The notes under the pieces: model-generated
What the model was told of the DNA's origin: nothing
The model's database searches: none
What the model saw: only the letters and a program-made list of their open reading frames with translations
NCBI GenBank assembly: GCA_003151795.1
Contig: PLYL01000005.1
Location: 1,011-65,010, forward strand
Direction of reading: 5' to 3'
Length of the DNA: 64,000 nucleotides
Source of the DNA: Candidatus Yanofskybacteria bacterium
GTDB taxonomy: Bacteria; Patescibacteriota; Minisyncoccia; 2-02-FULL-40-12; GWA2-44-9
Shown: positions 3,217 to 61,883 of the stretch, piece after piece
Layout of the letters: each line of letters opens with the position of its first letter
Numbering within the stretch: position 1 is the first letter of the stretch
Program-made: the position numbers and the translations under genes

Positions 3217-3606
3217 ATGAAACCAGACTATTTCGTGTCCCTGAAGCATTACTACGGGGATATCGTCCGGAAACTCTTTTTTGCCGCCGCGATTTTAATG
3301 CTCGCCAGCCTGCCGTTTTTCAGCGACCGTCTGCCGGTTTCAACGATTGACTCTCTGGTAATCATCGTGGCGATTGGATTTTTCGCCGGTTTAACCAATC
3401 CGGTCGAACCGTTTCCAGCGATTATCAATACTCTCACTTCCGGCGTGGCGGTGGTAATTTTTGAATATTACGCGGTTCTGACCTATCAATTAAATTCAGC
3501 CAGTGACCCCTTGTTTTTGGCCGATCAAGCGCTCGCTATTATTTTCCTGTTCGCGCTGTATTATGGAACCAAGACTTTGCGGGCGATGATGATTGATAAA
3601 AATTAA
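3217..3606 (+). CDS. Hypothetical membrane protein (129 aa)
   Basis: Multiple predicted TM helices. The stop codon abuts the left arm of IR element 1. Confidence 0.45.
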   Translation: MKPDYFVSLKHYYGDIVRKLFFAAAILMLASLPFFSDRLPVSTIDSLVIIVAIGFFAGLTNPVEPFPAIINTLTSGVAVVIFEYYAVLTYQLNSASDPLFLADQALAIIFLFALYYGTKTLRAMMIDKN

Positions 3607-3744
3607 TCCCGCACATAACAGCCATATGCAGTAGATAGTGCGGAATTAGTTAAATTAACAAGACAGACCATACGACAAGCTCATTGCGTGGACTTAAGTA
3701 AAAAGTACTGCCCGAGAGCACTAGATGGCTGTTATGTGCGGGAT
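3606..3744. repeat. IR-element copy 1: perfect 20-bp inverted repeat (ATCCCGCACATAACAGCCAT / ATGGCTGTTATGTGCGGGAT), 99-bp spacer
   Basis: Arms at 3606-3625 and 3725-3744. The right arm overlaps the ATGAATAAA start of the DoxX gene. Confidence 0.8.
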
Positions 3745-4177
3745 GAATAAATTCCAAAGAATTTCGTTGCTTCTTCTGCGGGTCAGTCTCGGGTGGATGT
3801 ATTTTTGGGCGGGGATTACCAAAGTGGTTGACCCGGCCTGGTCGGCGGCCGGGTATTTGCAAGGGGCTAAAACCTTTCCGGCTCTTTTCCACTGGTTTGC
3901 TTCGCCCGCCTTACTGCCCCTCACTAATTTCGTAAATGAGTGGGGTTTGACCCTGTTGGGAGTTTCGCTAATTCTTGGTTTAGGCGTTCGCTGGACGGCC
4001 CCATTCGGGATTGCGCTCATGGTCTTATATTATCTCCCGATTCTTCAATTCCCATACCCGAATGTCAATTCATTTATCGTTGACGAGCATTTCATTTATG
4101 TCTGCGGACTTATCGTCCTCCTGGCGTTCAACGCGGGTAAATTTTGGGGGATGGATAGACGCGTCAGTCGCGCTTAA
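3743..4177 (+). CDS. DoxX-family membrane protein
   Basis: RISLLLLRVSLGWMYFWAGITK fits the DoxX signature. Start placed at ATGAATAAA (MNKFQ...). Confidence 0.65.
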   Translation: MNKFQRISLLLLRVSLGWMYFWAGITKVVDPAWSAAGYLQGAKTFPALFHWFASPALLPLTNFVNEWGLTLLGVSLILGLGVRWTAPFGIALMVLYYLPILQFPYPNVNSFIVDEHFIYVCGLIVLLAFNAGKFWGMDRRVSRA

Positions 4178-12078: not shown

Positions 12079-12087
12079 AAATTAATC

Positions 12088-12116
12088 AAAAAATCGCCTC
12101 GAGGCGATTTTTTGAT
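12088..12116. terminator. Bidirectional intrinsic terminator (aaaaatcgcctcgaggcgatttttt)
   Basis: Palindromic 9-bp stem flanked by an A-run and a T-run. It serves the convergent genes on both strands. Confidence 0.7.
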
Positions 12117-12126
12117 TTTCTGATAG

Positions 12127-24282: not shown

Positions 24283-25495
24283 AGATTTATTTCAAGAGAC
24301 TTTTTCCGCGATTACGGTCAATAAAGTCCGGTCCGGCTTGACCGTGCTCGGGATTGTCATCGGCATCGCCTCGGTCATCGGTTTGGTCTCCATCGGCCAA
24401 GGCGCCCAAAATAGCATCTCCGCCAGCATCCAATCAATCGGCTCGAATCTGATTATTGTCACGCCGGGCGCCGCGCGCGGGGCGGGCGTGCAGTTCAGCG
24501 CCGGCCGGGGCAGCGCCCAAACGCTGACCCAAGCCGATGCCGACGCGATTAAAGCTACCGTAACTGAAGTCGCGGGCATCGCGCCCGAAGTTTCCCGCCG
24601 CTACCAAGTCATCGCCGGCGGGCTGAATACGAACACGAGCGTCATCGGCACCGTGGCGGATTATACCAATGTCCATAATTTTCAAATGGATGAAGGGTCA
24701 TTCATCACTGACCAGCAGGTCCAAAGCGTCGCCAAAGTGGCCGTGCTCGGCCCGACGACGCGAGACGATTTATTCGGCGTCGGTTCGGAAGCGCTCGGCC
24801 AGAAAATTAAAATCAACAAAATAGAATTTACCGTCATCGGCACGACAATTGCCAAAGGCGGTTCCGGTTTCACGAATCCGGACGACGCAATTTATGTCCC
24901 AATCTCGACCGCCCAGCATTATCTGGCCGGCGGGAATTACGTGACGGGGATTGATTTGTCGGCGGTGAGCCAGCCGGCGATGGTTGACGTCCAAAATCAG
25001 GTTACTAGTTTATTGCTCCAGCGCCATAATATTTCCGATCCGACCCTGGCTGATTTCAGCGTCATGAACCAGAATGACATTACTTCGGCCGCGTCCAGCA
25101 TCACTAACACCTTTACCCTTCTTCTGGCCGCCATCGCCGGTATTTCGCTCGTCGTCGGCGGAATCGGCATCATGAACATGATGCTCACGAGCGTCACCGA
25201 ACGGACGCGTGAAATCGGCTTGCGCAAAGCCATCGGCGCGACGCCGAAAGATATTTCTCTCCAATTTTTAACCGAATCAGTGATGCTGACATTTTTCGGC
25301 GGGGCCATCGGCGTTGCCATCGGCTGGGGTATTTCCCTTCTCGCCGGCCATTTCTTGAGCCTGAATACTTCCGTAACATTATCTTCCGTCGCACTGGCTT
25401 TTGGCGTTTCGGCCGGTATCGGGATTGTTTTCGGTTATTACCCTTCGCGTCGTGCCGCCGGTCTTAATCCCATTGAGGCATTGCGTTACGAATAA
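24272..25495 (+). CDS. ABC transporter permease, FtsX/MacB family (paralog)
   Basis: ERTREIGLRKAIGA motif and 4-TM topology. The ATPase stop overlaps its start. Confidence 0.8.
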   Translation: MTLKDLFQETFSAITVNKVRSGLTVLGIVIGIASVIGLVSIGQGAQNSISASIQSIGSNLIIVTPGAARGAGVQFSAGRGSAQTLTQADADAIKATVTEVAGIAPEVSRRYQVIAGGLNTNTSVIGTVADYTNVHNFQMDEGSFITDQQVQSVAKVAVLGPTTRDDLFGVGSEALGQKIKINKIEFTVIGTTIAKGGSGFTNPDDAIYVPISTAQHYLAGGNYVTGIDLSAVSQPAMVDVQNQVTSLLLQRHNISDPTLADFSVMNQNDITSAASSITNTFTLLLAAIAGISLVVGGIGIMNMMLTSVTERTREIGLRKAIGATPKDISLQFLTESVMLTFFGGAIGVAIGWGISLLAGHFLSLNTSVTLSSVALAFGVSAGIGIVFGYYPSRRAAGLNPIEALRYE

Positions 25496-25632
25496 TCCCG
25501 CACATAACGAGCAGAAGTCTCTGTTGTGGGCGATGGTTAAAGTTTTATAAAATAATTTTTCGGGCACTAGGATATTGGTTCTGGCTATATATGTAGCGAG
25601 ACCAGAAGCCCACTGCTCGTTATGTGCGGGAT
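25496..25632. repeat. IR-element copy 2: perfect 20-bp inverted repeat (ATCCCGCACATAACGAGCAG / CTGCTCGTTATGTGCGGGAT), 97-bp spacer
   Basis: The left arm starts right after the permease stop codon. The right arm ends in the ATGAATAAA start of the next gene. Confidence 0.8.
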
Positions 25633-26439: not shown

Positions 26440-26474
26440 GGCGGCGCGTTCAACGCGCCGCCTTTACTTTTTCC
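26440..26474 (+). terminator. GC-clamp hairpin (ggcggcgcg-ttcaa-cgcgccgcc) followed by tttactttttcc
   Basis: Perfect 9-bp all-GC stem with a 5-nt loop and a T-rich tail, 50 nt upstream of the RT start. Confidence 0.6.
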
Positions 26475-26524: not shown

Positions 26525-27844
26525 ATGATTGATTTTGATAATTTTCAGCAAATAATAGATAGAAAATTTTGGAGATGTATTACGAGAGACACCCTATGTC
26601 CAGTTGGGGAGCAGTCTAAAGATAAATTGCTTCGCATCCTCTATGATTCAATTGTGGATAAGACTTATTATCCATCTCCACCCCGAGAGTACCTTGTGAG
26701 CCATAAATCACAGAAAGTAGCCAGAATAGTTCCAGTTTTTGAAATAAAAGATTATTGTCTGTATTATTTTTGTGTAAAGCGACTTGAAGATTTTTTGACT
26801 AAAGAGCGAACCCCTAATACTTTTGGTGGATGGAGATTGAGTAATAATTTTAGTGAATTAGAACGACAAGAATTAGAGCGAAGATATCCTTATGTCGATC
26901 CCGAGTATTTTTCAGAAGGCTCTTTTAATCCATTGGCCTGGGTTAAATTCTGGGGTGAATTTACGGCTTTATTATACTCAACCCTAGAGCGAGAACAGGA
27001 GGGGTTTATTGTTGAGTTTGATATATCTAATTTTTATGATTGCGTAAGACTGGATATTCTAGAGAATAATATTAGGTCAGTATCTCCTGCAGAGTTACAA
27101 TTTGAAGTTAGTTTGCTTATGCATTTTTTAAAATACTGGAATAGGAAATTTAATTCCTATCACCCACAATCTGCAGGGATACCTCAAGACGAATCCCAAG
27201 ATTGTTCTAGAATTTTGGCTAATTTTTATCTCCAGGCCTATGATAAAAAGATCAACAGGTTATGTTCTGGAATGGGAGCTAGATATTTCAGATATGCAGA
27301 TGATCAAGTTATATTTGCAGAGAATAAATTAGTAGCCGGTAGACTCTTGTTTGAGGCGTCAAAAGAGTTATCTAAAATTGGTTTGAACATTAATACCAGT
27401 AAAGTTAAAGAGTTTAGTTCAAAGAAAGACTACGCAAACTTTTGGTCGTTCGACATACATCAAAATTTAGGCAGGAAAGATATAAAAAATGCTTTTGCAA
27501 TCTGGAAGGATAGAAAAGATAAAATAGATGGGTTCCGCAATTACCCATCTATTATTAAAAGATTTATTAGTAACGACCTTTCTGTACTGGATTTAAATGA
27601 GTACAATATGATTATGACTGAAGCTCTGTCTCGTGAGATGTATTCAGTCTATGATTCTCGCCAGCTAAAAAAGATATATTTGAAATTACACGAGGATGAA
27701 AAGAGAAAATTTATTAACGAGCTAAATCAAACGGCAAAAGTTTTTCCTTTTAATAAATTTCATTTTATCCTTAAGAAATTTTTTAGTGAATTTGGCTTTG
27801 ATTGTTCTGATTTAGACTTAAAAATTAATGAATTAAGGCTTTAG
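26525..27844 (+). CDS. Reverse transcriptase (orphan, YADD catalytic motif; retron/DRT/UG-like, not intron-associated)
   Basis: RT motifs PSPPREY..IVPVFEIKD (1/2), FIVEFDISNFYDCV (A/3), GIPQDESQDCSRILANFYL (B'/4), RYFRYADDQVIFAEN (C/5), ELSKIGLNINTSKVKEF (D/E/6-7). About 33% GC island. No maturase X, endonuclease or other fused effector domain. Confidence 0.8.
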   Translation: MIDFDNFQQIIDRKFWRCITRDTLCPVGEQSKDKLLRILYDSIVDKTYYPSPPREYLVSHKSQKVARIVPVFEIKDYCLYYFCVKRLEDFLTKERTPNTFGGWRLSNNFSELERQELERRYPYVDPEYFSEGSFNPLAWVKFWGEFTALLYSTLEREQEGFIVEFDISNFYDCVRLDILENNIRSVSPAELQFEVSLLMHFLKYWNRKFNSYHPQSAGIPQDESQDCSRILANFYLQAYDKKINRLCSGMGARYFRYADDQVIFAENKLVAGRLLFEASKELSKIGLNINTSKVKEFSSKKDYANFWSFDIHQNLGRKDIKNAFAIWKDRKDKIDGFRNYPSIIKRFISNDLSVLDLNEYNMIMTEALSREMYSVYDSRQLKKIYLKLHEDEKRKFINELNQTAKVFPFNKFHFILKKFFSEFGFDCSDLDLKINELRL

Positions 27845-33361: not shown

Positions 33362-33412
33362 CTTTTACATATTATAGCGTATTAACAAAATAGATAGTAT
33401 GTGGATTATCCA

Positions 33413-33477
33413 CCCCGCATATAACTGTCAGCATTTTTGTCTGGACCTTGCGGGTCAACTGACAGTTATGTGCGGGG
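33413..33477. repeat. IR-element copy 3: 19-bp inverted repeat (CCCCGCATATAACTGTCAG / CTGACAGTTATGTGCGGGG, 1 mismatch), 27-bp spacer
   Basis: Same core CCCGCA(C/T)ATAAC...GTTATGTGCGGG as copies 1 and 2. It lies 70 nt upstream of the 33551 gene. Confidence 0.7.
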
Positions 33478-33550
33478 TCCACCCCGAGTATAAAATAAGA
33501 TTGCAACGTAGCAGGTCGTCAGTCCGTATCCATGTGATATACTAAAACGG

Positions 33551-36677: not shown

Positions 36678-37991
36678 ATGAAGCGTCAACCCCGTAATAC
36701 AACTTCGATTAGCTCGGCCAAAGCCGAGCATGTTCGGTCAAAAATCGGAGTTGATATACGGGGTCAAGATACTCAAAAAACTGTCTATGTCGGCATGTCC
36801 CCGAAGCAATCGCTGCGCGATGCTACGGGGCAGGCGCGCGGAGTTAAGTCTGCGGTTGTTTATGTTGGTATGTCCGGGGGTGTAGATTCTTCCGTGGCCG
36901 CGGCCTTGCTGAAGAAGCAGGAATTTAAGGTGGTCGGGGTTTTTATGAAACCGTGGCAACCAGGCGAAGGAACAATGAGCAATGAACAAGGAACAAAAAA
37001 AAGAGTTTCAGGGGTACCTGCTCATGGTTCATTGTTCAATGATCATTGTCTCTGGAAGCAAGACCGCGAAGATGCGATGCGCTCGGCCGTGGCCATCGGG
37101 ATTCCATTGCTGACTTGGGATTTTTCCAAAGAATATAAAAAGTTAGTGACGGATTATATGATTCGCGAGTACAAAGCCGGTCGGACGCCGAATCCCGACG
37201 TGATGTGCAATAAAGAAATTAAATTCGGATTATTTTTGAAACGCGCTTTGAAAGAAGGGGCGGATTTCATCGCGACGGGACACTACGTGCGTTTAAGAAA
37301 CAATGAACAGGGAGCAATGAACAGGAAACATGTTCATTGCTCCCTGTTCATTGCTCATGATTTAAATAAAGACCAGTCTTATTTTTTGTGGACGCTGACG
37401 CAAGAGCAATTAAAATATTGTCTATTTCCGGTTGGAGAGTATATCAAGCCCGAAGTCCGGAAGCTGGCCAAGAAATTTAAACTGCCGAATCACGCCAAAA
37501 AAGACAGCCAGGGCGTGTGCTTCATTGGGCCGTTAGATATGAAAGAATTTTTACTCACGTATATCAAACCCAGGAAAGGCAGGATCATTTTAATGAGTGG
37601 GCAAGGAAACCTGCCTGCCGGCAGGCAGGTTGGGACTCACGACGGCGTCTATTATTACACTATTGGCCAACGCCACGGACTGGACATCAAAGACGGCGGC
37701 GGGCCATACTATGTCGTCGCCAAAGATATCAAGAAAAATATTATCTATGTCGGTACCGATGCTCAAGCCGTTACGCAAAATACCAAAGTTGAAGAATTTA
37801 ATTGGCTAAATCGGCCATCTTTGCCAACACGTCTGGATGTCAAAGTCCGTTACCGGACGAAGTCGGTTAAAGCTGTACTGGATAAAAAAGGCGTTTTAAA
37901 ATTTGAAAAACCGGAGCGCGCCGTTACCTCCGGCCAGTCCGCAGTTTTCTATCGGGGGAAAGAATTGCTTGGCGGCGGGATTATTGTATGA
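36678..37991 (+). CDS. mnmA: tRNA 2-thiouridylase MnmA, with three in-frame palindromic insertions and an N-terminal extension
   Basis: PP-loop SGGVDSS, Cys motifs, and C-terminal GQRHGLDI...GGG. About 70 aa longer than typical MnmA. The true start may be internal (MSPKQ / VVYVGMSGG). Confidence 0.8.
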   Translation: MKRQPRNTTSISSAKAEHVRSKIGVDIRGQDTQKTVYVGMSPKQSLRDATGQARGVKSAVVYVGMSGGVDSSVAAALLKKQEFKVVGVFMKPWQPGEGTMSNEQGTKKRVSGVPAHGSLFNDHCLWKQDREDAMRSAVAIGIPLLTWDFSKEYKKLVTDYMIREYKAGRTPNPDVMCNKEIKFGLFLKRALKEGADFIATGHYVRLRNNEQGAMNRKHVHCSLFIAHDLNKDQSYFLWTLTQEQLKYCLFPVGEYIKPEVRKLAKKFKLPNHAKKDSQGVCFIGPLDMKEFLLTYIKPRKGRIILMSGQGNLPAGRQVGTHDGVYYYTIGQRHGLDIKDGGGPYYVVAKDIKKNIIYVGTDAQAVTQNTKVEEFNWLNRPSLPTRLDVKVRYRTKSVKAVLDKKGVLKFEKPERAVTSGQSAVFYRGKELLGGGIIV

Positions 37992-38064: not shown

Positions 38065-38349
38065 ATGGGATCAGAACAGGAGTACACGCATTGTTACGAA
38101 GTTCTTGAGCAGTTCATCGGGTCTGTAAGGCTCAATCCGAACCAGACCATCACAGATCTTCGTCAGCGGTTGAGATTGAGGCTCAAACGGGAGAGAGACG
38201 AAAAAAGAGTGGGTTGGATCGTCATCGCCTACGGCGCCCTGACCCTGCTCATCGATTCCGGAATGCTTGCGGTCTCTGCGACAGTGGAACAGCTCGAGGA
38301 ACTTCTCAAGTGGGTGACAATGTTACCCGCTTCTGATTTCATGCATTAA
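38065..38349 (+). CDS. Hypothetical small protein (95 aa)
   Basis: ORF downstream of mnmA. No recognisable domain. Start assignment uncertain. Confidence 0.3.
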   Translation: MGSEQEYTHCYEVLEQFIGSVRLNPNQTITDLRQRLRLRLKRERDEKRVGWIVIAYGALTLLIDSGMLAVSATVEQLEELLKWVTMLPASDFMH

Positions 38350-39935
38350 CTGCCGTTCAGCGTCAAACCACTAAGCAGGCTCGTGCCGGTCATCTCGACT
38401 GGCACGAGCATTTTTAATAATTCCAAAATCGTCGGGGCGACATCGGCGAGGAGGCCGTCGGCTTGAGCAAGAGATTTATTTAGTTCATCAATAGTGCGCG
38501 GACGGGCGTATTCGCGGCCGATTAAATAAAACGGTACGGGATTATCATCGTGCTTGGTCTCTTGGGCGCCCGTGTTTTTATAGATCATCGATTCGACATT
38601 GCCGTGATCGGCGGTGATGAGCATAATCCCGTCTTTGGCTAAAACTTTTTCTTTAATCACGCCTAGAGCGGTATCGACAGCGCGCACACCTTGCGTTGCG
38701 GCTTCCAAATTTCCAAGATGGGCGAGGATATCGCCGTTCGCGATATTGATAACATAAAAATCATAGCCATTGCGGTCTAGTTCGGTTACAACCTTGTCTG
38801 CAATATCCCTGGCCCGCATTTCCGGATGTTCTATCGGATTCTCAAGCGAGTCAATAAAGAAATCGGTTTCGCCCTCATAGGGTGCGTTGCGCAGGCCGTT
38901 GAAAAAGAAGGTCACATGGGCGTATTTTTCGGTTTCGGCGATATGGAGATGTTTTTTACTATCCGCGCTTAACACCTCGGATAAGCAATGATCAATCGGC
39001 GGGGGTGGAAACAACACATGCAGAAGCGGAGAGTCGCTATAGCGCGTCATCGAAGCGAGATAGAGATTAGCGGGAAGCACGCGGGGAAACTTATCAAATG
39101 ATTCATCGGTGAAGGCTTGGACGAGCTGGCGCATTGAATCTTCCCGGAAATTAAAGAACACAATCGCGTCGCCTGCCTTCACTAAATCTTCGGCGGGCAA
39201 GCCCTCTTTGTTTATCATGACCGTCGACGGGATTCCGCCATCGTGGATATCTTGGACATAGTAGCCTTCTAGTGTCTTAAAAATATCATCGCTCGGCGTG
39301 CCTGTACCTTGGGTGAGCAGATTAAACGCAATTTCGGTCTTTTGCCAATTATTATTGCGGTCCATGGCGAAGTCTCGGCCGATTAATGTCGCGAGGTGGT
39401 CCAGCCCGCCGATTTGACCGGAGAGTTTTTTAAGGGTATCGCCTGCTTCCTTGAGCCCGGAATCCCGCCCGTCGGTGAAGAGGTGGATTTTATAAGGCGC
39501 ATTGCTGTCCTTGGCAAACTTTACCAAAGCAATGAGATGATTGAAGTGAGCGTGCACCGCCCCGGAAGTTAAAAGCCCCACAATATGAAGCGTGCCCGCC
39601 TGTCCGGTAGGCAGGGAATTATTAGTCTGGATATGATGGACCGCTTCTTCCAGGGCCGGATTTTTAAAAAATTCTCCGGTACCGATAGCTTTATTAATTC
39701 GGGTCAAGTATTGGAAAATAATCCGGCCGGCGCCGAGGGTTAAATGGCCAACCTCGCTATTACCCGATTCGCCAAAAGTCATCCCCACCGCCGGCCCGGA
39801 AGCTTGCAGAAGCATCGACGGATAGTTCTGAAAAATTTCATCCAAAACCGGCGTCCCCGCGCCGGCAATCGCATTGCCATTTATGTTCTTGGAATATCCC
39901 CAGCCATCCAAAATTGTCAGCACGATTGGCCGCAT
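38346..39935 (-). CDS. gpmI: 2,3-bisphosphoglycerate-independent phosphoglycerate mutase
   Basis: MRPIVLTILDGWGYS N-terminus, the metal-binding TADHGN motif, and about 530-aa length. Confidence 0.85.
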   Translation of the reverse strand: MRPIVLTILDGWGYSKNINGNAIAGAGTPVLDEIFQNYPSMLLQASGPAVGMTFGESGNSEVGHLTLGAGRIIFQYLTRINKAIGTGEFFKNPALEEAVHHIQTNNSLPTGQAGTLHIVGLLTSGAVHAHFNHLIALVKFAKDSNAPYKIHLFTDGRDSGLKEAGDTLKKLSGQIGGLDHLATLIGRDFAMDRNNNWQKTEIAFNLLTQGTGTPSDDIFKTLEGYYVQDIHDGGIPSTVMINKEGLPAEDLVKAGDAIVFFNFREDSMRQLVQAFTDESFDKFPRVLPANLYLASMTRYSDSPLLHVLFPPPPIDHCLSEVLSADSKKHLHIAETEKYAHVTFFFNGLRNAPYEGETDFFIDSLENPIEHPEMRARDIADKVVTELDRNGYDFYVINIANGDILAHLGNLEAATQGVRAVDTALGVIKEKVLAKDGIMLITADHGNVESMIYKNTGAQETKHDDNPVPFYLIGREYARPRTIDELNKSLAQADGLLADVAPTILELLKMLVPVEMTGTSLLSGLTLNGS

Positions 39936-39984
39936 GAGTAGAGTATATCAAGAGCTTGGCTTCATGCCCAGCTCGACCGATAAT

Positions 39985-40007
39985 CAACCTGCTCCTGCGG
40001 CAGGTTG
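39985..40007. repeat. Hairpin CAACCTGC-tcctgcg-GCAGGTTG
   Basis: Perfect 8-bp stem. It shares the AACCTGC...GCAGGTT core with the 24-nt palindrome inside mnmA (37608-37631). Confidence 0.5.
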
Positions 40008-40452
40008 CCATCTAGATGCTCGCCCCTTCACCACATAATCTCCAACCATGTCCACACGCATTGTGTCGCGTAGCCTAAATGTGGCTATCCGATGTGATGC
40101 GTTTTTCGTTTTAATTTAAAAAATAAGCGAAGCCTTTGTAATTTTATTCAATCTGCACAATCGGTTGTCAGCTCAGCATTTTTGACGCTATTTCTCTGGG
40201 TGCCGGCCCGAGGATGCCCGAAACGGCTGAAAGCCGCATGGTCGGGCAGGAGTTGCTTCGGACGGCCAGAGAAATTAGGAGAAAATGCTAGAGCTGGCCC
40301 GAGCGGAAGCCTGAAGAAAATTATAAAGGCGGAGCGCCTGTTCATAATAAGGTTTGCTAAAAAAGACCTTTTTCTGTATACTCGGGATAACCTTCCTTTA
40401 ATATTAGCTAGAAAAATCAACACAAATATGGTCTTTCTAACTTTACACAACA

Positions 40453-43180: not shown

Positions 43181-43213
43181 TCAGTTGACGTATCGGATCC
43201 GATATATCAATTC

Positions 43214-43238
43214 AAAAACCGCGTAGCACGCGGTTTTT
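43214..43238. terminator. Bidirectional intrinsic terminator (aaaaaccgcg-tagca-cgcggttttt)
   Basis: Hairpin flanked by A-run and T-run between the convergent hup and rarA genes. Confidence 0.7.
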
Positions 43239-43241
43239 GAA

Positions 43242-44378
43242 TTATTCTTTGAGATATTTCTTGTCTTTCAATTTTTCGGGCAAGAGGTCTTCTTTGGGAT
43301 AGCGAGTGTAGCCTTTGCCATAATCCAATTCTTTCATGAGTTTGGTAACGGGGTTGCGAATCATCAAGGGAATGGGCAAGTTGCCGTATTTTTTCACGTC
43401 GGCGAGGGCTTCCTGATAGGCTTCATATGATCTTTTGCCTTTTGGACATTTACAAAGATAGGCGACGCCATGGGCGAGATTGATGCCGGCTTCGGGCATG
43501 CCGATGGCGTCGACGGCCTGAAAGACGGCGTTGGCGAGGACGAGGGCTTGCGGGTCTTTTAATCCAATATCTTCTGACGCGAAGATAACCATGCGGCGGG
43601 CGATAAATTTCGGATCTTCGCCGGCTTCGACCATCCGGGCGAGATAATAGAGGGCGGCGTCGGGCTGGCTGGCGCGCATGCTTTTGATGAACGCACTGAT
43701 GGTGTTGTAATGCTCTTCGCCCTTTTTGTCGTAGCGGAGAAATTTAGACTGAAGGGTATTTTTTAAATTTTCAATAGTGATGGCGCCGTAGAGCCGATTG
43801 GTATTTTCCAACATCGTAATGGCTTGGCGGGCATCGCCGCCGGCCATCGAGATGAGCCAGTCGCCGGCGTCTTTCGGAATTTTGAATCCCGTGCGTTTGA
43901 GAATCGCGCACATATCTTCCTCATTGAGTTCTTCTAAAACAAAGACTCGACAGCGGGAAAGGAGGGCGGGGATGACTTCAAAACTGGGATTCTCGGTCGT
44001 GGCGCCGATGAGCGTGAGCTTGCCGGATTCCACGAAGGGTAGAAGATAATCCTGCTGGGCTTTATTGAAGCGGTGAATCTCGTCGAGAAAGAGAATTTTA
44101 GGCCCGAATAGCCCCTCCGCGGACTCGACTATTTTGCGGATATCTTCTTTGCCCGCCGAAACCGCCGACAGTTCGTGATAATCGGCTTTCAGGGCGTTGG
44201 CGTAAATCCGGCCCAGGGTTGTCTTGCCAACTCCCGGCGGTCCCCAGAGAATAAAAGAGAAAAGATGTTTTTTATCGATGGCAATCGCGAGCGGTTTATC
44301 CGGGCCGACCAAATGCCGCTGGCCCATGAATTCGGACAGTTCTTTCGGTCTGATTTGGACGGCAAGAGGTTCTGGCAT
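43242..44378 (-). CDS. rarA: Replication-associated recombination protein RarA/MgsA (AAA+ ATPase)
   Basis: Walker A GPPGVGKTT, Walker B ILFLDEIHRF, sensor motifs; about 380 aa (no N-terminal Zn finger). Confidence 0.8.
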   Translation of the reverse strand: MPEPLAVQIRPKELSEFMGQRHLVGPDKPLAIAIDKKHLFSFILWGPPGVGKTTLGRIYANALKADYHELSAVSAGKEDIRKIVESAEGLFGPKILFLDEIHRFNKAQQDYLLPFVESGKLTLIGATTENPSFEVIPALLSRCRVFVLEELNEEDMCAILKRTGFKIPKDAGDWLISMAGGDARQAITMLENTNRLYGAITIENLKNTLQSKFLRYDKKGEEHYNTISAFIKSMRASQPDAALYYLARMVEAGEDPKFIARRMVIFASEDIGLKDPQALVLANAVFQAVDAIGMPEAGINLAHGVAYLCKCPKGKRSYEAYQEALADVKKYGNLPIPLMIRNPVTKLMKELDYGKGYTRYPKEDLLPEKLKDKKYLKE

Positions 44379-48038: not shown

Positions 48039-48046
48039 TTTTCTTG

Positions 48047-48117
48047 AGCGGGATACGGGAGTCGAACCCGTCTCTTGAGTTTGGAAAACTCATGTATTAC
48101 CGATATACGAATCCCGC
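48047..48117 (-). tRNA. tRNA-Gly (anticodon TCC)
   Basis: Cloverleaf: acceptor GCGGGAT/ATCCCGC, D-arm GTAT-ATCGGTA-ATAC, anticodon loop TTTCCAA, T-arm CGGG-TTCGACT-CCCG. Confidence 0.8.
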
Positions 48118-48400
48118 CTAGTTTTCTAAAGCACTGACTTCTTGCAAACTCTCTCTTATTATTAATTTCAATGATTTTTTTCCAGGATTTGTTTTAAAAT
48201 ACTCTTCGCGACGTAAAGCATCTTTTTTAGAAAGAAAGTACTCACAGAAAATTAACTGAAATGGTCGTCTCTTTTAGACTGAAAAGGACATATGTACAAT
48301 AAATTAGCTTTGCCATTTTTGCAATCAAAAGAAACATCATAGCGAATGAAGTACAGCCTGGCTGACTTCATCGCCATGAAGCGAACTTCGTTCTGCTTCA

Positions 48401-48474
48401 TGGTCGGGCCGCCGGGATTTGAACCCGGACTACGTGATCCCAAATCACGCGTGCTACCGTTACACAACGGCCCG
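48401..48474 (-). tRNA. tRNA-Pro (anticodon TGG), CCA encoded
   Basis: Acceptor CGGGCCG/CGGCCCG, anticodon stem CGTGA/TCACG with loop TTTGGGA, T-arm CCGGG-TTCAAAT-CCCGG, 3' ACCA. Confidence 0.85.
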
Positions 48475-48476
48475 TG

Positions 48477-48548
48477 TGTCCTCGGAGGGAATCGAACCCC
48501 CATCAAGGCCTTAGAAGAGCCCTGCTCGATCCGTTGAGCTACGAGGAC
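48477..48548 (-). tRNA. tRNA-Arg (anticodon TCT)
   Basis: Acceptor GTCCTCG/CGAGGAC, D-arm GCTC...GAGC, anticodon loop CTTCTAA, T-arm GGGGG-TTCGATT-CCCTC. 3 nt upstream of tRNA-Pro. Confidence 0.8.
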
Positions 48549-50737: not shown

Positions 50738-50812
50738 GGGGGCTATGGTGAAGAGGTTATCACAGCGCTCTGTGGCAGCGCGGTCGAGGGTTCGATTCCC
50801 TCTAGCCCCCCA
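50738..50812 (+). tRNA. tRNA-His (anticodon GTG) with genomically encoded G-1
   Basis: Five G run (G-1 plus GGGGCTA acceptor) pairing to TAGCCCC plus C73, anticodon loop CTGTGGC, T-arm GAGGG-TTCGATT-CCCTC. Extended -10 TGaTATAAT about 20 nt upstream. Confidence 0.85.
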
Positions 50813-58553: not shown

Positions 58554-58931
58554 CTAGGGCGCGGCGATTTCCGTGCTCGTCTTCTTGATCGTATTTTTGG
58601 GAAAGTACTTGGTACCGATGTGGCGGACCAGCGCCATCTTTTGAGGACTTCTCGCGGGAAGTTCCTCGTACAATTTCATCGCGCCCGAGAGCCCCGATGG
58701 ATGTTCCTTCAACTTGGTCTGGATTGCCTCATCCGCTTCCGTGTCTGCCTGCTTAAAGGCAATTTCAACGCTGACGATGTCGATTCCAGTTCTTCGGTAC
58801 ATCCACCCTGTATCAACCTCTGTGTGCATGTAAGCCCCCAGTAAAGATTGTACAAAAATATTATTTTTGGTCAATGGGCCGCCAGCGCCAGGGAAGCCCA
58901 ATTTATTTTTAAAAATGATATAATCAGGCAT
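58554..58931 (-). CDS. Hypothetical protein (125 aa). Its start codon overlaps the divergent helicase start.
   Basis: ORF only. ATG overlaps the + strand ATG by 2 nt, so one of the two starts may be misassigned. Confidence 0.3.
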   Translation of the reverse strand: MPDYIIFKNKLGFPGAGGPLTKNNIFVQSLLGAYMHTEVDTGWMYRRTGIDIVSVEIAFKQADTEADEAIQTKLKEHPSGLSGAMKLYEELPARSPQKMALVRHIGTKYFPKNTIKKTSTEIAAP

Positions 58932-61836
58932 GGATTTTAAGGAAGCCTATAAGCAACTCAATCCGGAGCAGAAGAAAGCCGTCGACGCGATTGAAGGGCC
59001 GGTGATGGTTGTCGCGGGACCGGGGACGGGCAAGACGCAGATTTTGGTTTTGCGAATCGCCAATATTTTATTAAAGACTGATACGCCCGCAAGCGGAATT
59101 TTAGCCTTAACATTTACTGAAGCCGGGGCAAAAGAAATGAAACGGCGCGTGCGAGAAATAATCGGTTCGCGGGCCGATGAAGTCCGAGTCCATACCTATC
59201 ATGGCTTTGCGGCTTCGGTCATCGCTGAATTTCCAGAGCATTTTCCTCATCTTTCCCGGACTAAGCAATTAACAGACATCGAGACAGAATCGATGGTGCG
59301 CGATATTTTGAAAGAAAAAAGATTCGCGCCTTTGCGTCCGTACGGCGAGCCCGATTTGTACGTCGGTAAAATTATCGGCGCCATCGCTGATTCTAAAAAA
59401 GAAGCTTGGACTCCGGACATGGTTGCCAGTTTCGCCGCGGATGAAATTAAGCGAATTGAAAATGATGAAGATTCAATTTCTAGCCGCGGGCCAACCAAGG
59501 GCAAATTAAAAGCCGAGGCTTTGAAACGGATTGAGAAATGCGAACGCACGTTATTATTCGCCGAAGTCTACCGGGTCTATGAATCTCGCAAAAGAACGGA
59601 AAGGATGATGGATTTTGAAGATTTAATTTTTGAACTCATTACCGCACTGAAGAAAGACGAACTCCTGCTTCGTCTATTGCAAGAGAAATATTTATATATC
59701 TTAGTCGATGAGCATCAAGACACGAATGACGCTCAAAACGCGCTCATCCGTTTAATTGCCGATTTCTTCGAAACGCCCAACTTGTTTGTCGTCGGTGACG
59801 AGAAGCAGGCGATTTATCGTTTTCAAGGCGCTTCGGTTGAGAATTTTTTAAAGTTCCAAAGTATTTGGCAGTCGATGAAAGTGATCCCTCTTAGGGAGAA
59901 CTATCGCTCGCACCAGAGTATTCTAGACGCCACATTCGCGATGATCGAGCGCAACTACGACGAAGGCGAGCATGTTGATTTGCGCGTGCGTTTGAAATCA
60001 GCCAACGGCCAGCCCTCCAAACCGCTCGATGTCGTGCACGCCGGCAATGCCGAAGCCGGCGACGAGTATCTAGTAAAAGAATTAGCAAAAATAAAAAAAG
60101 GCACGGTGGCGATAATTGTCCGCCGCAACCGAGATATCCCGCGATTATTGAGTTTGTGCGAAGAACATGGGATTCAAGCTTCAGCCGAAAGAGGAACGGA
60201 TATTTTTTCGCATCCGGTCGGTTCTTTATTTTTCAGTCTTATTGAGTTTTTAGCGGATACTGGCCAGACCGAAGCTTTGGCCCAAACCATTGCCGGCGGT
60301 TTATGGAAGCTGACTCTTGAAAAATCCGCTAGCTTAATCCGAGCGATTCGGAGCGGAACTTTGCGGGACATTGAACGCGATCTTCCTGAATTAAAGAAGC
60401 TAGCGAATGAAATTACCCATGCCGGTTCAGTCGCGTATCTCACGCTGGCCGGCCAGATGAGCGGTTTAACCGGCCTTTCGGCAAGCGAACCTTTAGCCGC
60501 TGAAGTTTGGCACGCGATTATTGCGCTGGCCCAGCACCTGGCCCGGTCGCATGGTCTCGCCGATGACCCGCGCGCTTTGATTAAATTATTGCTGGAATAT
60601 CGAACTTCCGCTGAAAAAAAGACTATTAAAATCAGTACGGGTTCGCCCGAGGCTCGGGTAAAGATTATGACCGCTCACGGCTCTAAAGGGCTTGAATTTG
60701 ATTATGTATTTTTACCGTACGCGACCGAAGAAGCGTGGTTGCCTCGAGTTCGAGGATCTTATTTTGTTTTGCCCCGCGGCAAAGAAGAAGGCGATGAAAT
60801 TCGCGACTCGCGCCGTTTGTTTTATGTCGCGCTTACCCGGGCTAAAAAACATGTCTCTATTATTGCTCCTCTTCAAGAAGGTTTAGACACGGCCCTGACG
60901 CCGCTTCGCTTCTTGAGCGAGCTTGACCCAAACCACATTTCAAAAATAAATATCCCCGCTGTTGAAGTTCATCTCGGTACTGCTTCGCTTGAAAGCCGCC
61001 AGTCGAGCCGTCGGACTGAAACTATCGAATACGCTAAATCCATCCTTTTGGAGAAAGGCCTTTCCGTTACCGCTTTAAATCATTTTTGCGATTGTCCAAG
61101 AAAGTTTTTCTATAAAAGCATTTTAAAACTGCCGGAACCGCCGAGCGCGAATGCCGAAAAAGGCAACGCCATGCACGAAGCATTAGCGCGGGTTTGGCAT
61201 TTAAAAGATAAAAGCCAAGAAAAAATTTCAAAGACAATAATTGAATCAGTCAGTGCGTATTTCAACGCCTCCTTGCTGCCGTCATTTGAAAAAGAGCCCT
61301 TGCTTGAAGATTTGATTGAGACTGCGCCGATTGTTGCCGCAGCTTTGAAAGCTCATGTAAATCAGTTGGGTACGATTATGACGGAGACGTGGACGGAAAG
61401 ACTTTACGAAGGCGAATATCAAAAGACGGCCGTCCCTTTGCTATTGCATGGCAAACTCGATGCGGTTCTTGAAACAGCCGCGGATGTCTTGGTCTTTGAT
61501 TACAAAACTCGCGAAGCGATGAGCGAGAATGCTATCAAAGGCCAGACAAAAGACAGCGATGGAAATTATTTCCGCCAGCTGGTTTTTTATAAGATGCTAC
61601 TTGAAAATAAATCAAAATATAAAAACAAAACAATTCAGCCAGCGCTTGTATTTTTAAAACCTGATGCCAAAGGCCAATGTAAAATTATTTCTCTGCCAGT
61701 TTCCGCTGAAGATATCCGGACTGTCGAAGGGGAAATTCAAACCCTCATCACCAGTGTCTGGTCAGGCAATTTCCTTACCGACACCTGTGATGATAAAGAT
61801 TGTGAGTTTTGCGCTCTGCGGAAACTCATACAATGA
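58930..61836 (+). CDS. UvrD/PcrA-type SF1 helicase fused to C-terminal PD-(D/E)xK (Cas4/AddB-like, Cys-cluster) nuclease
   Basis: Helicase motifs I (AGPGTGKT), II (ILVDEHQDTN), Q-motif. C-terminal FCDCPRK...LDAVLE...VFDYKT...CDDKDCEFC matches the RecB-family nuclease with a 4-Cys cluster. Confidence 0.8.
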   Translation: MDFKEAYKQLNPEQKKAVDAIEGPVMVVAGPGTGKTQILVLRIANILLKTDTPASGILALTFTEAGAKEMKRRVREIIGSRADEVRVHTYHGFAASVIAEFPEHFPHLSRTKQLTDIETESMVRDILKEKRFAPLRPYGEPDLYVGKIIGAIADSKKEAWTPDMVASFAADEIKRIENDEDSISSRGPTKGKLKAEALKRIEKCERTLLFAEVYRVYESRKRTERMMDFEDLIFELITALKKDELLLRLLQEKYLYILVDEHQDTNDAQNALIRLIADFFETPNLFVVGDEKQAIYRFQGASVENFLKFQSIWQSMKVIPLRENYRSHQSILDATFAMIERNYDEGEHVDLRVRLKSANGQPSKPLDVVHAGNAEAGDEYLVKELAKIKKGTVAIIVRRNRDIPRLLSLCEEHGIQASAERGTDIFSHPVGSLFFSLIEFLADTGQTEALAQTIAGGLWKLTLEKSASLIRAIRSGTLRDIERDLPELKKLANEITHAGSVAYLTLAGQMSGLTGLSASEPLAAEVWHAIIALAQHLARSHGLADDPRALIKLLLEYRTSAEKKTIKISTGSPEARVKIMTAHGSKGLEFDYVFLPYATEEAWLPRVRGSYFVLPRGKEEGDEIRDSRRLFYVALTRAKKHVSIIAPLQEGLDTALTPLRFLSELDPNHISKINIPAVEVHLGTASLESRQSSRRTETIEYAKSILLEKGLSVTALNHFCDCPRKFFYKSILKLPEPPSANAEKGNAMHEALARVWHLKDKSQEKISKTIIESVSAYFNASLLPSFEKEPLLEDLIETAPIVAAALKAHVNQLGTIMTETWTERLYEGEYQKTAVPLLLHGKLDAVLETAADVLVFDYKTREAMSENAIKGQTKDSDGNYFRQLVFYKMLLENKSKYKNKTIQPALVFLKPDAKGQCKIISLPVSAEDIRTVEGEIQTLITSVWSGNFLTDTCDDKDCEFCALRKLIQ

Positions 61837-61841
61837 TCTGG

Positions 61842-61883
61842 AGTTGTCATATGAACATATGCGCATATGTTCATATGACAACT
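61842..61883. repeat. Perfect 42-bp palindrome AGTTGTCATATGAACATATGC|GCATATGTTCATATGACAACT
   Basis: Read directly. It begins 6 nt after the helicase-nuclease stop, contains three CATATG cores, and has no flanking T-run. Confidence 0.9.

Follow-up and report, generated by a model that had tools for sequence, protein, structure and literature searches.

The mnmA locus

The stretch of DNA analysed here, called the window, comprises 64 kb of contig PLYL01000005.1 from a Candidatus Yanofskybacteria bacterium (48% GC), and its gene mnmA, which encodes a tRNA 2-thiouridine synthase and lies on the forward strand at positions 36678-37991, carries five in-frame inserts made of palindromic or hairpin sequence. 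The 437-aa product matches PF03054 (4.5e-69), PF20259 (9e-21) and PF20258 (1.6e-17), which is the three-domain architecture of MnmA, with the HUP/PP-loop domain, the PRC-barrel and the C-terminal beta-barrel all present. Among solved structures the top match is the B. subtilis MnmA (5e-81), the S. pneumoniae and E. coli MnmA structures matching as well. In an alignment of homologues the PP-loop MSGGVDSS (M5-S12) is intact despite the inserts, and C64, C117 and C221 stand in invariant columns; C117 and C221 presumably correspond to the catalytic cysteines of E. coli MnmA. A promoter-like (sigma-70-like) sequence, TTGATT-17-TATACT, which is a consensus match only, ends 10 nt 5′ of the ATG at 36678. 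The identical 437-aa product is found on three assembled contigs, including scaffold WOOD18-1_SAMN07125042, and the named MnmA homologues come from metagenome-assembled genomes of Paceibacteria, Yanofskybacteria and other Patescibacteria. The gene order is kept in relatives and reads 446-aa protein, (peroxiredoxin), mnmA, small open reading frame (ORF), gpmI, rny.

Insert-free relatives have an MnmA of about 340 aa, and the excess of the window protein over the homologue P0059 (339 aa) is 98 aa. A previous reading of the letters alone, referred to below as the sequence-only reading, had recognised three palindromic segments in mnmA, here called (a), (b) and (c), and all three lie in frame in the ORF at 36678-37991. 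It had, however, credited them with about 70 added residues, while the contributions measured against P0059 are about 24, 12 and 7 aa (43 aa), in our own tally from the site lists of a 120-homologue alignment. The number of inserts is also five rather than three: two further ones near the N-terminus (N1 and N2), throughout which the ORF is open, account for the remaining excess. Peptides to which the inserts would contribute, if translated, include NNEQGAMNR, HVHCSLFIAHDLNK and GQGNLPAGR. In (b) and (c), codons of the 3′ arm align in part with residues native to MnmA (LF.A.D and GR.V, respectively).

Lineage-specific insertions at reused positions

Two alignments were made with close MnmA homologues (37 and 120 sequences of 331-442 aa). 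Their three gap-rich positions are the sites of (a), (b) and (c), named hotspots or sites 1, 2 and 3, and the pairwise alignments to solved MnmA structures show gaps at the same three places. The segments are thus lineage-specific in-frame insertions, as the sequence-only reading had supposed, the closest relatives having either nothing or an unrelated sequence in their place. Within the clade nearest in neighbour-joining order (P0002, P0003, P0005, P0010, P0013, P0014 and P0045) at least three different states occur at each of sites 1 and 2, and at site 3 relatives have several unrelated sequences. Over the 120 relatives, the three internal sites carry more than 12 unrelated insert families, and many proteins (339-346 aa) have none. 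Recurrent insert peptides are NE.G..N.EHAHCSL..AH, [FY]AKAS.G.,.HGAHA., ARSTRSARSGR, RSDLKG.SRSDLE, SPIRAN.RI, KSQILNSKQI.NSKFQI and GPV..HP...., and several of these families appear at more than one hotspot, e.g. the FAKAS.G type at sites 1 and 3. Such a reuse of hotspots by unrelated sequences is what selection would yield if few loops tolerate extra residues.

An AlphaFold2 model of a 377-aa construct reached a mean predicted local distance difference test score (pLDDT) of 79 and a predicted template modelling score of 0.76. Here (a) forms an unstructured loop (residues 36-61, pLDDT below 50) and (c) a loop between strands 241-245 and 257-261; (b) is modelled as a lengthened beta-hairpin (strands 144-149 and 160-165, pLDDT about 59).

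Inverted heptamer arrays at hotspots 1 and 2

Insert (b), at 37296-37358 on the forward strand, occupies hotspot 2 after GHYVRL, is built of 14-nt units CAATGAACAGGGAG and encodes NEQGAMNRKHVHCSLFIAH. Its arms CAATGAACAGGGAGCAATGAACA (37301-37323) and TGTTCATTGCTCCCTGTTCATTG (37331-37353) are inverted copies that match perfectly over 23 bp around a 7-nt loop, a claim of the sequence-only reading that was borne out by direct reading and by a repeat search, and with an extension the stem reaches 25 pairs. Folded as RNA it has a minimum free energy of -40.5 kcal/mol (z = -10.5), and 0 of 200 shuffles are as stable. A scan of the window for hairpins (at least 10 bp, loop of at most 12 nt) returned 12, and none of the others comes near (b) in strength; four of the 12 lie clearly in long ORFs, and two of these four are (b) and (c). 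Of its six frames only the one in use is open.

The same family fills hotspot 2 in six other MnmA genes (L003 and L162-L166) as poorly paired tandem heptamers, with CAATGAA, CAAGGAA and CATGGAA units in the left array and CTCACTG and CTCATTG units in the right one. These arrays are homogenised genome by genome, P0021 for example having three CAAGGAA and three CTCACTG units. The site-2 fold of the six relatives amounts to -10.3 to -27.6 kcal/mol, and among the seven carriers a perfect palindrome is found in the window copy only. The loss of pairing argues against a structural constraint on (b), and it weakens the proposal, made as an alternative in the sequence-only reading, that the inserts are regulatory mRNA structures. 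Our base-by-base comparison of the window copy with that of P0039 gave eight differences, and with all of them the arms still pair perfectly, as is characteristic of intrastrand template switching and not of selection for a conserved structure. Quasipalindrome template-switch mutagenesis, reportedly described by Ripley and by the Lovett laboratory, needs only one templated event to make the arms of an imperfect inverted repeat match perfectly.

The exact 24-mer AATGAACAGGGAGCAATGAACAGG of (b) is also present in two unrelated metagenome contigs, in both cases in intergenic DNA and as tandem 14-mers with a distal inverted arm, next to a putative ispH ORF and a PAP2-like ORF as read from their translations and not by profile search. 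By our own estimate the chance expectation for this 24-mer is well below one. A BLAST search of the plasmid collection with (b) gave no match. Between the window and L003, (b) is identical at 49 of 57 nt (86%) and at 17 of 19 third codon positions. Sliding identity along mnmA places the window closer to the related loci L001 and L002, except at site 2. A single recombination tract from a (b)-carrying lineage was considered for (a) and (b) together and rejected, because similarity to the (b)-carrying lineages is raised only around site 2.

Insert (a), at 36963-37046 on the forward strand, lies at hotspot 1 after KPWQP and before an invariant Cys, and it provides 28 aa where insert-free relatives have 4-8 aa. 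It consists of inverted heptamer arrays (GGAACAA TGAGCAA TGAACAA GGAACAA ... CTGCTCA TGGTTCA TTGTTCA ATGATCA), whose imperfect inverted repeat pairs at 22 of 29 positions (76%) in the best register (36967-36995 / 37019-37047) and at 20 of 23 in an alternative one (36972-36994 / 37027-37049), close to the 19 of 23 counted before. Its fold is weaker than that of (b) (-25.8 kcal/mol, z = -3.5), and it has one open frame out of six. The sequence CAATGAACA occurs five times in the window, always inside mnmA, against 0.62 expected. A homologous insert is present at the same site in L003 with 74% nucleotide identity (71% at third positions), the corresponding values for the core gene being 67% and 44%.

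Two inserts near the N-terminus

The canonical MnmA start, MKRQ..K.VYVGMSGGVD, is split by N1 and then again by N2. N1, a compound hairpin of 75 nt at 36690-36764 on the forward strand, stands between MKRQ and QDTQKTVYVG and encodes PRNTTSISSAKAEHVRSKIGVDIRG. Its inverted repeat (I9) has 22-nt arms at the two ends of the insert (82%), the fold has an energy of -38.8 kcal/mol (z = -8.3), and N1 is missing from L001, L002 and L003. The N1 termini ACCCCGTAATACAAC are loosely similar to the ends of an intergenic family, CCCGCAYATAAC, which occurs six times in the window against 0.47 expected and is MITE-like (MITE, miniature inverted-repeat transposable element). Three intergenic hairpin elements of this family, 67-147 bp long and with common termini ATCCCGCACATAAC...GTTATGTGCGGGAT, lie at 3602-3748, 25495-25632 and 33412-33478.

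N2 (PKQSLRDATGQARGVKSA) is a GC-rich (67%) hairpin segment of 54 nt at 36801-36854 on the forward strand; with its flanks the whole unit spans 36780-36875. The flanks are a diverged 21-nt direct duplication (36780-36800 and 36855-36875) which encodes (T/V)VYVGMS, i.e. the native VYVGMS codons. N2 is common to the window and L002 only, and over 36801-36851 the two copies agree at 50 of 51 nt and at 16 of 17 third codon positions, compared with 77.5% identity of the core gene overall and 50% at its third positions. The identity of N2 with L002 and of (b) with L003 therefore exceeds that of the host gene, synonymous sites included, which suggests either that these inserts share a more recent ancestry than their host genes or that they are constrained as nucleic acid.

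Dispersal of the palindrome at hotspot 3

Insert (c) is the 24-nt perfect palindrome AACCTGCCTGCCGGCAGGCAGGTT at 37608-37631 on the forward strand, at hotspot 3 before GR.VG.HDG, with the 20-nt core CCTGCCTGCCGGCAGGCAGG. Direct reading and the repeat search agreed with the sequence-only reading on its position, on its perfection and on the encoded NLPAGRQV; it adds 7 aa to MnmA. The core, which had no match in 100 shuffles, is stop-free in all six frames, unlike (a) and (b). In a collection of 185,579 species-representative genomes the core, written as CCTGCCTGCCGG(N0-1)CAGGCAGG, was found at no fewer than 120 loci; by our estimate, chance would provide about one match under uniform base composition, and less than that in DNA of 31-50% GC, the range of most hits. 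The taxonomic spread is qualitative and was taken from these loci, with groups assigned by record titles. The matches listed include many groups of Patescibacteria and Bacteroidota, the latter with several isolate genomes, as well as Omnitrophota, Planctomycetota, Bdellovibrionales, Thermodesulfovibrionales, Nitrospira, Elusimicrobia, Ignavibacteria and Chloroflexi; none of the matches listed belongs to Firmicutes, Actinobacteria or enterobacteria. Among the cultured organisms that have (c) are Winogradskyella echinorum, Flagellimonas yonaguniensis, Longitalea luteola and Aquiflexum lacus.

The 20-mer also occurs at 35 loci of the viral collection IMG/VR, on which alone control palindromes were run; the two controls, equal to the 20-mer in composition and in their CCGG centre, were found at 0 and 1 loci. 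Several members (L126-L133) of a group of related high-GC viral contigs with (c) have a large ORF in common, an unannotated putative portal protein. One viral contig of 29.5 kb (IMGVR_UViG_3300037242_000417; L146, L153 and L154) has six (c) cores, some of them at the apex of longer repeated hairpins, and one of the six adjoins DNA encoding an AFAKASAG motif, which belongs to the peptide family of the MnmA site-1 and site-3 inserts. Another (IMGVR_UViG_3300025106_000007; L159, 3920-4142) has the 21-nt (c)-family variant CCATGCCTACCGGCAGGCAGG at least 10 times in tandem, in an array which reaches the end of the contig and keeps the frame owing to its period of 21 nt (7 codons). Against the plasmid collection, a doubled (c) query returned weak hits only (E 0.2-0.8), in F-plasmid trbB, and was judged uninformative; these matches, 83% over about 36 nt in about 2,900 enterobacterial conjugative plasmids (e.g. 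NZ_CP127256.1, 93752-93785), are not significant and probably represent a CAGG-rich coding repeat.

Copies of (c) were found in ORFs of at least 250 codons, in intergenic DNA and in a tRNA gene. Most of the ORF-borne copies use the Cys-free LPAGRQ frame, and in our own reading of the site table the 21-nt variants are apparently more frequent in long ORFs. The host ORFs, identified by eye from the residues flanking the insert, include FtsK, dTDP-glucose dehydratase (RfbB), RsmI, GT39-like membrane proteins and a metallophosphoesterase; all ORF identities outside the window are readings of translated sequence and none comes from a profile search. At hotspot 2 of another MnmA (P0108/L167) the (c) core is nested in a (GAATTAT)n array. 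In L150 the palindrome lies in the variable loop of a tRNA-Met, and its deletion in silico gave a tRNA of 72 nt. A D-arm-like sequence precedes (c) in L022, L047, L107, L122 and L157. The idea of several tRNA insertions was rejected, since removal of the palindrome in silico gave a clean tRNA in L150 only, with L038 doubtful. L047 (2106-2280, complete WWE3 genome MEWB01000001) has a tRNA 5′ fragment with acceptor and D arm, followed by (c) and by a GIY-YIG-like ORF; this tRNA may be disrupted or intron-bearing, and ARAGORN calls no tRNA there. The tRNAs of the window at 48046-48548 and 50739-50811 (Gly-TCC, Pro-TGG and Arg-TCT on the reverse strand, His-GTG on the forward strand) have no palindromic insert.

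Other copies and hairpins in the window

The window holds one exact and one or two decayed copies of (c). A decayed copy lies in gpmI (38346-39935) at 39594-39615 on the reverse strand, as a 21-nt in-frame insert encoding LPTGQAG, and L001 and L002 share it with the window at one and the same codon, as variants of CCTGCCTG.CCGGCAGGCAGG, while it is absent in L003. A second variable stretch of gpmI, INKEGLPAEDL at residues ~245-252, is seen in the window and L002, is shorter in L003 and is absent in L001. On the 5′ side of gpmI, at 39985-40007, stands the hairpin CAACCTGC-TCCTGCG-GCAGGTTG with an 8-bp stem (-17.5 kcal/mol, z = -5.2). Its presence had been noted in the sequence-only reading together with a kinship to (c), which is only plausible in view of the 7-8 bases shared per arm; the hairpin may possibly be a decayed or deleted copy of the (c) family. 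It was not found in the orthologous spacers of L001, L002 and L003. The gpmI-rny spacer as a whole (39936-40452, 517 nt) is unusually long for a compact genome, does not align with the spacer of the relatives and has no match in Rfam, and differing small ORFs are called there in L002 and L003.

Intergenic perfect or near-perfect palindromes of 28-42 nt at 61842-61883, 12084-12117, 43206-43246 and 770-797 are unrelated in sequence to the mnmA elements and look like bidirectional terminators, the 42-nt one lying directly 3′ of a UvrD/PD-(D/E)XK helicase-nuclease gene (58930-61836). A stand-alone reverse transcriptase gene of the 'unknown group' class UG13b (26525-27841, forward strand; PADLOC RT_UG13b, E = 1.2e-124; Pfam RVT_1) has a hairpin with a 12-bp stem inside it (27521-27555) and a GC hairpin upstream (26440-26462).

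Origin of the inserts

On balance we favour the explanation that mnmA was colonised by short palindromic repeat DNA at loops that tolerate it, in the way known for the Rickettsia palindromic elements (RPEs), and that the inserts were then reshaped by slippage and template switching. There would have been at least five colonisations by hairpin-forming repeat DNA of several families, namely the inverted heptamer arrays (a) and (b), the 20/21-nt GC-rich palindrome (c), the N2 hairpin with its duplicated target and the 75-nt N1 hairpin. Repeat DNA of this kind would arrive throughout genomes and, in an essential enzyme, be kept only at tolerant sites and in a stop-free frame, the tolerant sites here being three variable positions between conserved blocks and the N-terminus. 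The inserts would then be translated as loop or beta-hairpin extensions and are presumably close to neutral for selection. Slippage may homogenise the heptamer arrays, while intrastrand template switching (quasipalindrome correction) may perfect the arms and thereby have produced the perfect 23-bp (b) in this lineage alone, and over time elements would replace one another at the same hotspots. As the route of insertion, we think it most likely that the sequences were copied or recombined from other copies by template switching, and not placed by a transposase that makes target-site duplications.

Several observations weigh against this explanation. Some of them concern the hallmarks of mobility around (c). 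At the first 111 sites, direct repeats of 1-6 nt do not abut the element more often than expected, and the flanks have no motif other than A at -1 and T at +1, nor a GTAG/CGTC tag. No protein family recurs near (c), and no Y1/RAYT-like gene does (RAYT, REP-associated tyrosine transposase, where REP stands for repetitive extragenic palindromic sequence), in a clustering of 2,497 ORFs from 155 loci. Flanking direct repeats are nevertheless present: repeats of at least 6 nt within 20 nt on both sides at 26% of 163 sites against 5.9% in shuffled pairings (at least 7 nt, 12.9% against 1.6%), and exact abutting repeats of 7-14 nt at six of the 163 (L056, L144, L128, L104, L101 and L134) against 0.01 expected, which the favoured explanation accounts for only loosely, as nesting in heptamer arrays. 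No empty and filled pair with near-identical flanks was observed, so that mobility is a deduction; the translation of the N-terminal 64 codons of mnmA is likewise something we infer from the open frame. Clear copies of the inserts within the window are confined to mnmA and gpmI, so that colonisation of the source genome as a whole is only presumed. Selection on nucleic-acid structure could also be the reason for the excess identity at synonymous sites, and the sharing of an exact 20-mer by many phyla is left without explanation.

The surroundings of (c) bear on the kind of element as well. Its flanks are mostly not inverted repeats, the 20-mer being the whole palindrome in most loci; many copies lie within short tandem arrays of units of about 7 nt, and one locus is a tandem 21-nt array of a (c) variant. 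The flank repeats may stem from occasional target duplication, from preferential survival in repeat arrays that were dispensable already or from hairpin-stimulated slippage. No target-site duplication is evident at the mnmA (c) or at the gpmI copy, and no transposase was seen among the scanned ORFs of the window. The possibility that the (c) arms are abutted terminal inverted repeats of a longer element was rejected, solo half-sites being present with no consistent pairing at element-like distances. From the sequence-only reading, the prediction that the repeat families would be met elsewhere has held for (c) and for the (b) 24-mer, and its MITE-like label is at best weakly supported for (c), for which a regular target-site duplication, a target motif and a linked transposase were not found; its REP-like label is at odds with the missing GTAG/CGTC tag and with the copies not being extragenic, many of them lying in ORFs.

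As a minor possibility, the 20/21-nt palindrome CCTGCCTG(N)CCGGCAGGCAGG could be a tiny, horizontally spreading 'nano-element' moved by a hairpin-specific mechanism between phyla and phages. It would have spread among Patescibacteria, Bacteroidota, Omnitrophota, Planctomycetota and others, leaving occasional direct repeats of 7-14 nt and inserting alike into ORFs, tRNA loops and heptamer arrays, and the (a) and (b) arrays would be its products or its preferred landing pads. An origin in place without any mobility, by inverted duplication or template switching and slippage of native mnmA sequence, with resemblances due to shared codons, would agree with the overlap of the (b) and (c) 3′ arms with the codons of LF.A.D and GR.VG, with the 21-nt duplication of the VYVGMS codons that brackets N2, with the lack of a regular target-site duplication for (c) and with the clear perfection of (b) in situ. 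We regard it as unlikely, given that the same (c) 20-mer is present at the unrelated genome loci counted above (at least 120), on phage contigs and in gpmI, that the (b) 24-mer recurs in unrelated intergenic DNA and that the same families sit at different hotspots, such as the (c) core at site 2 of P0108 and the FAKAS.G type at sites 1 and 3; local processes account for the reshaping of the inserts and not for the origin of their sequences. Nor did we find much to recommend selection for nucleic-acid structures, either mRNA hairpins for ribosome pausing or RNase recruitment (the RNase Y gene adjoins) or DNA cruciforms bound by proteins, and we hold it quite unlikely. The synonymous positions of N2 and (b) are far more conserved than those of the host gene, the perfect stems have z-scores between -8 and -10, and (c) has one and the same sequence in many phyla, which is also possible for parS and other palindromes bound by proteins. 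Yet six of the seven carriers of (b) have a weak hairpin or none, the closest relatives have no elements or unrelated ones at the same sites, and (c) occurs in ORF interiors, a tRNA variable loop and intergenic DNA with neither a positional logic nor an associated gene. Rfam searches of the window (gathering threshold) and of eight element loci (E <= 0.1) returned only tRNAs and a spurious miRNA-like hairpin.

It is very unlikely, in our judgement, that the inserts are adaptive protein loops of the MnmA of candidate phyla radiation (CPR) bacteria, selected for interactions with partners or tRNA and palindromic by accident. More than 12 unrelated sequences share the three sites and many relatives have none, what is conserved is the nucleotide sequence, third positions included, non-coding and tRNA contexts contain the same DNA, and (a) has a low pLDDT; these points outweigh for us that the inserts are kept in frame in many lineages, that peptide families such as NE.G..N.EHAHCSL..AHD are recognisable in genomes 65-70% identical and that (b) is modelled as a beta-hairpin extension. 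Palindromic chimeras from assembly or sequencing deserve mention because amplification and assembly are known to go wrong by producing perfect palindromes and the window is a metagenome scaffold, but they are extremely unlikely as the cause. An identical 437-aa product is on three contigs; (a), (b), N2 and the gpmI element have diverged homologues, each at its same codon, in independent samples processed by different assembly pipelines; (c) is present in the genomes of isolates and in assemblies that would be of long-read origin by their record names; and the reading frame is kept in all copies. An intron, an intein or translational bypass is unlikely, since the copies in real genes are all in frame and free of stop codons.

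If colonisation of tolerant loops is the right explanation, the permissive loops of proteins from CPR bacteria and several other environmental phyla contain translated repeat DNA, and this would explain part of the unusual length variation and of the low-complexity insertions of CPR proteins. Such translated repeats would mislead alignment, phylogeny, domain annotation and structure prediction; the inserts would also represent a natural insertional scan of tolerant sites in essential enzymes. The perfect (b) in this gene and its decayed copies elsewhere would be a case of quasipalindrome correction and heptamer slippage within a coding sequence, and the 20-mer shared by phyla and phage contigs asks for a route, be it a hairpin-specific enzyme, templated repair or phage-borne transfer. 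In the searchable literature, which leaves most subscription journals uncovered, we found no such account for CPR bacteria and no paper with the 20-mer.

Comparison with known repeat systems

Like the REPs and the bacterial interspersed mosaic elements (BIMEs), which with their RAYTs are the subject of PMC3733652, (c) is a GC-rich palindrome of 20-40 nt, repeated, non-coding in origin and sometimes tandem or nested. REPs are extragenic and species-specific, carry a GTAG/CGTC tag, reach hundreds of copies and have a cognate RAYT, whereas (c) is untagged, lies in ORFs and a tRNA gene, is identical across phyla and apparently has a low copy number per genome. With MITEs the mnmA inserts share terminal inverted repeats, N1 having 22-nt arms at its ends and (a), (b) and (c) being inverted repeats throughout; they differ in that no linked transposase was found for (c) at the 155 loci clustered. 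As to target-site duplications, (c) has no regular one but the occasional flanking repeats described above, and N2 has its 21-nt flanking duplication. The inserts (a) and (b), as inverted arrays of 7-nt units able to form hairpins, recall the short tandemly repeated repetitive sequences (STRRs). STRRs are known from filamentous cyanobacteria, and their unit sequences are unlike those in mnmA. [quoted passage not shown]

Palindromes inside the coding sequences of organelles resemble the mnmA inserts in that in-frame inverted repeats or GC-rich palindromes stand in translated genes of compact, AT-biased genomes. The GC clusters of yeast var1 are small GC-rich palindromes in frame in an organelle gene. 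In the mitochondria of Nematomorpha, perfect inverted repeats are in frame in translated genes and both arms encode conserved protein regions (PMC6649704); the arms in mnmA encode dispensable loops, and the host is bacterial rather than organellar. Quasipalindrome correction has the same outcome as is seen in (b), whose arms have been made fully complementary with respect to the P0039 copy, but it is a mutational mechanism and not a family of elements, and it accounts for the perfection of the arms and not for the origin of the sequence.

The RPEs (Ogata et al., 2000; reviewed in PMC2229807) are documented as in-frame fusions in 19 protein genes of Rickettsia and are also present in two RNA genes, and their insertion is regarded as near-neutral, as shown for an RPE-bearing guanylate kinase; they measure 105-146 bp, have terminal inverted repeats of about 12 bp and are limited to one genus (PMC2229807). 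In both cases dispersed palindromic repeats are in frame in housekeeping protein genes and also present in structural RNA genes, the repeat is absent from orthologues, a family recurs at several loci, with intergenic DNA and RNA genes among them (here for (c) and, in intergenic DNA, for the (b) unit), and the host has a reduced genome and depends on other cells. The differences are substantial: the units here are of 20-85 nt and belong to many unrelated families, the arms of (a) and (b) are made of heptamers, three hotspots are reused, (c) is common to phyla and phage contigs, and there is no sequence similarity to RPEs, judged by size and sequence only. The mnmA inserts therefore work like RPEs, but they are not members of the RPE family proper.

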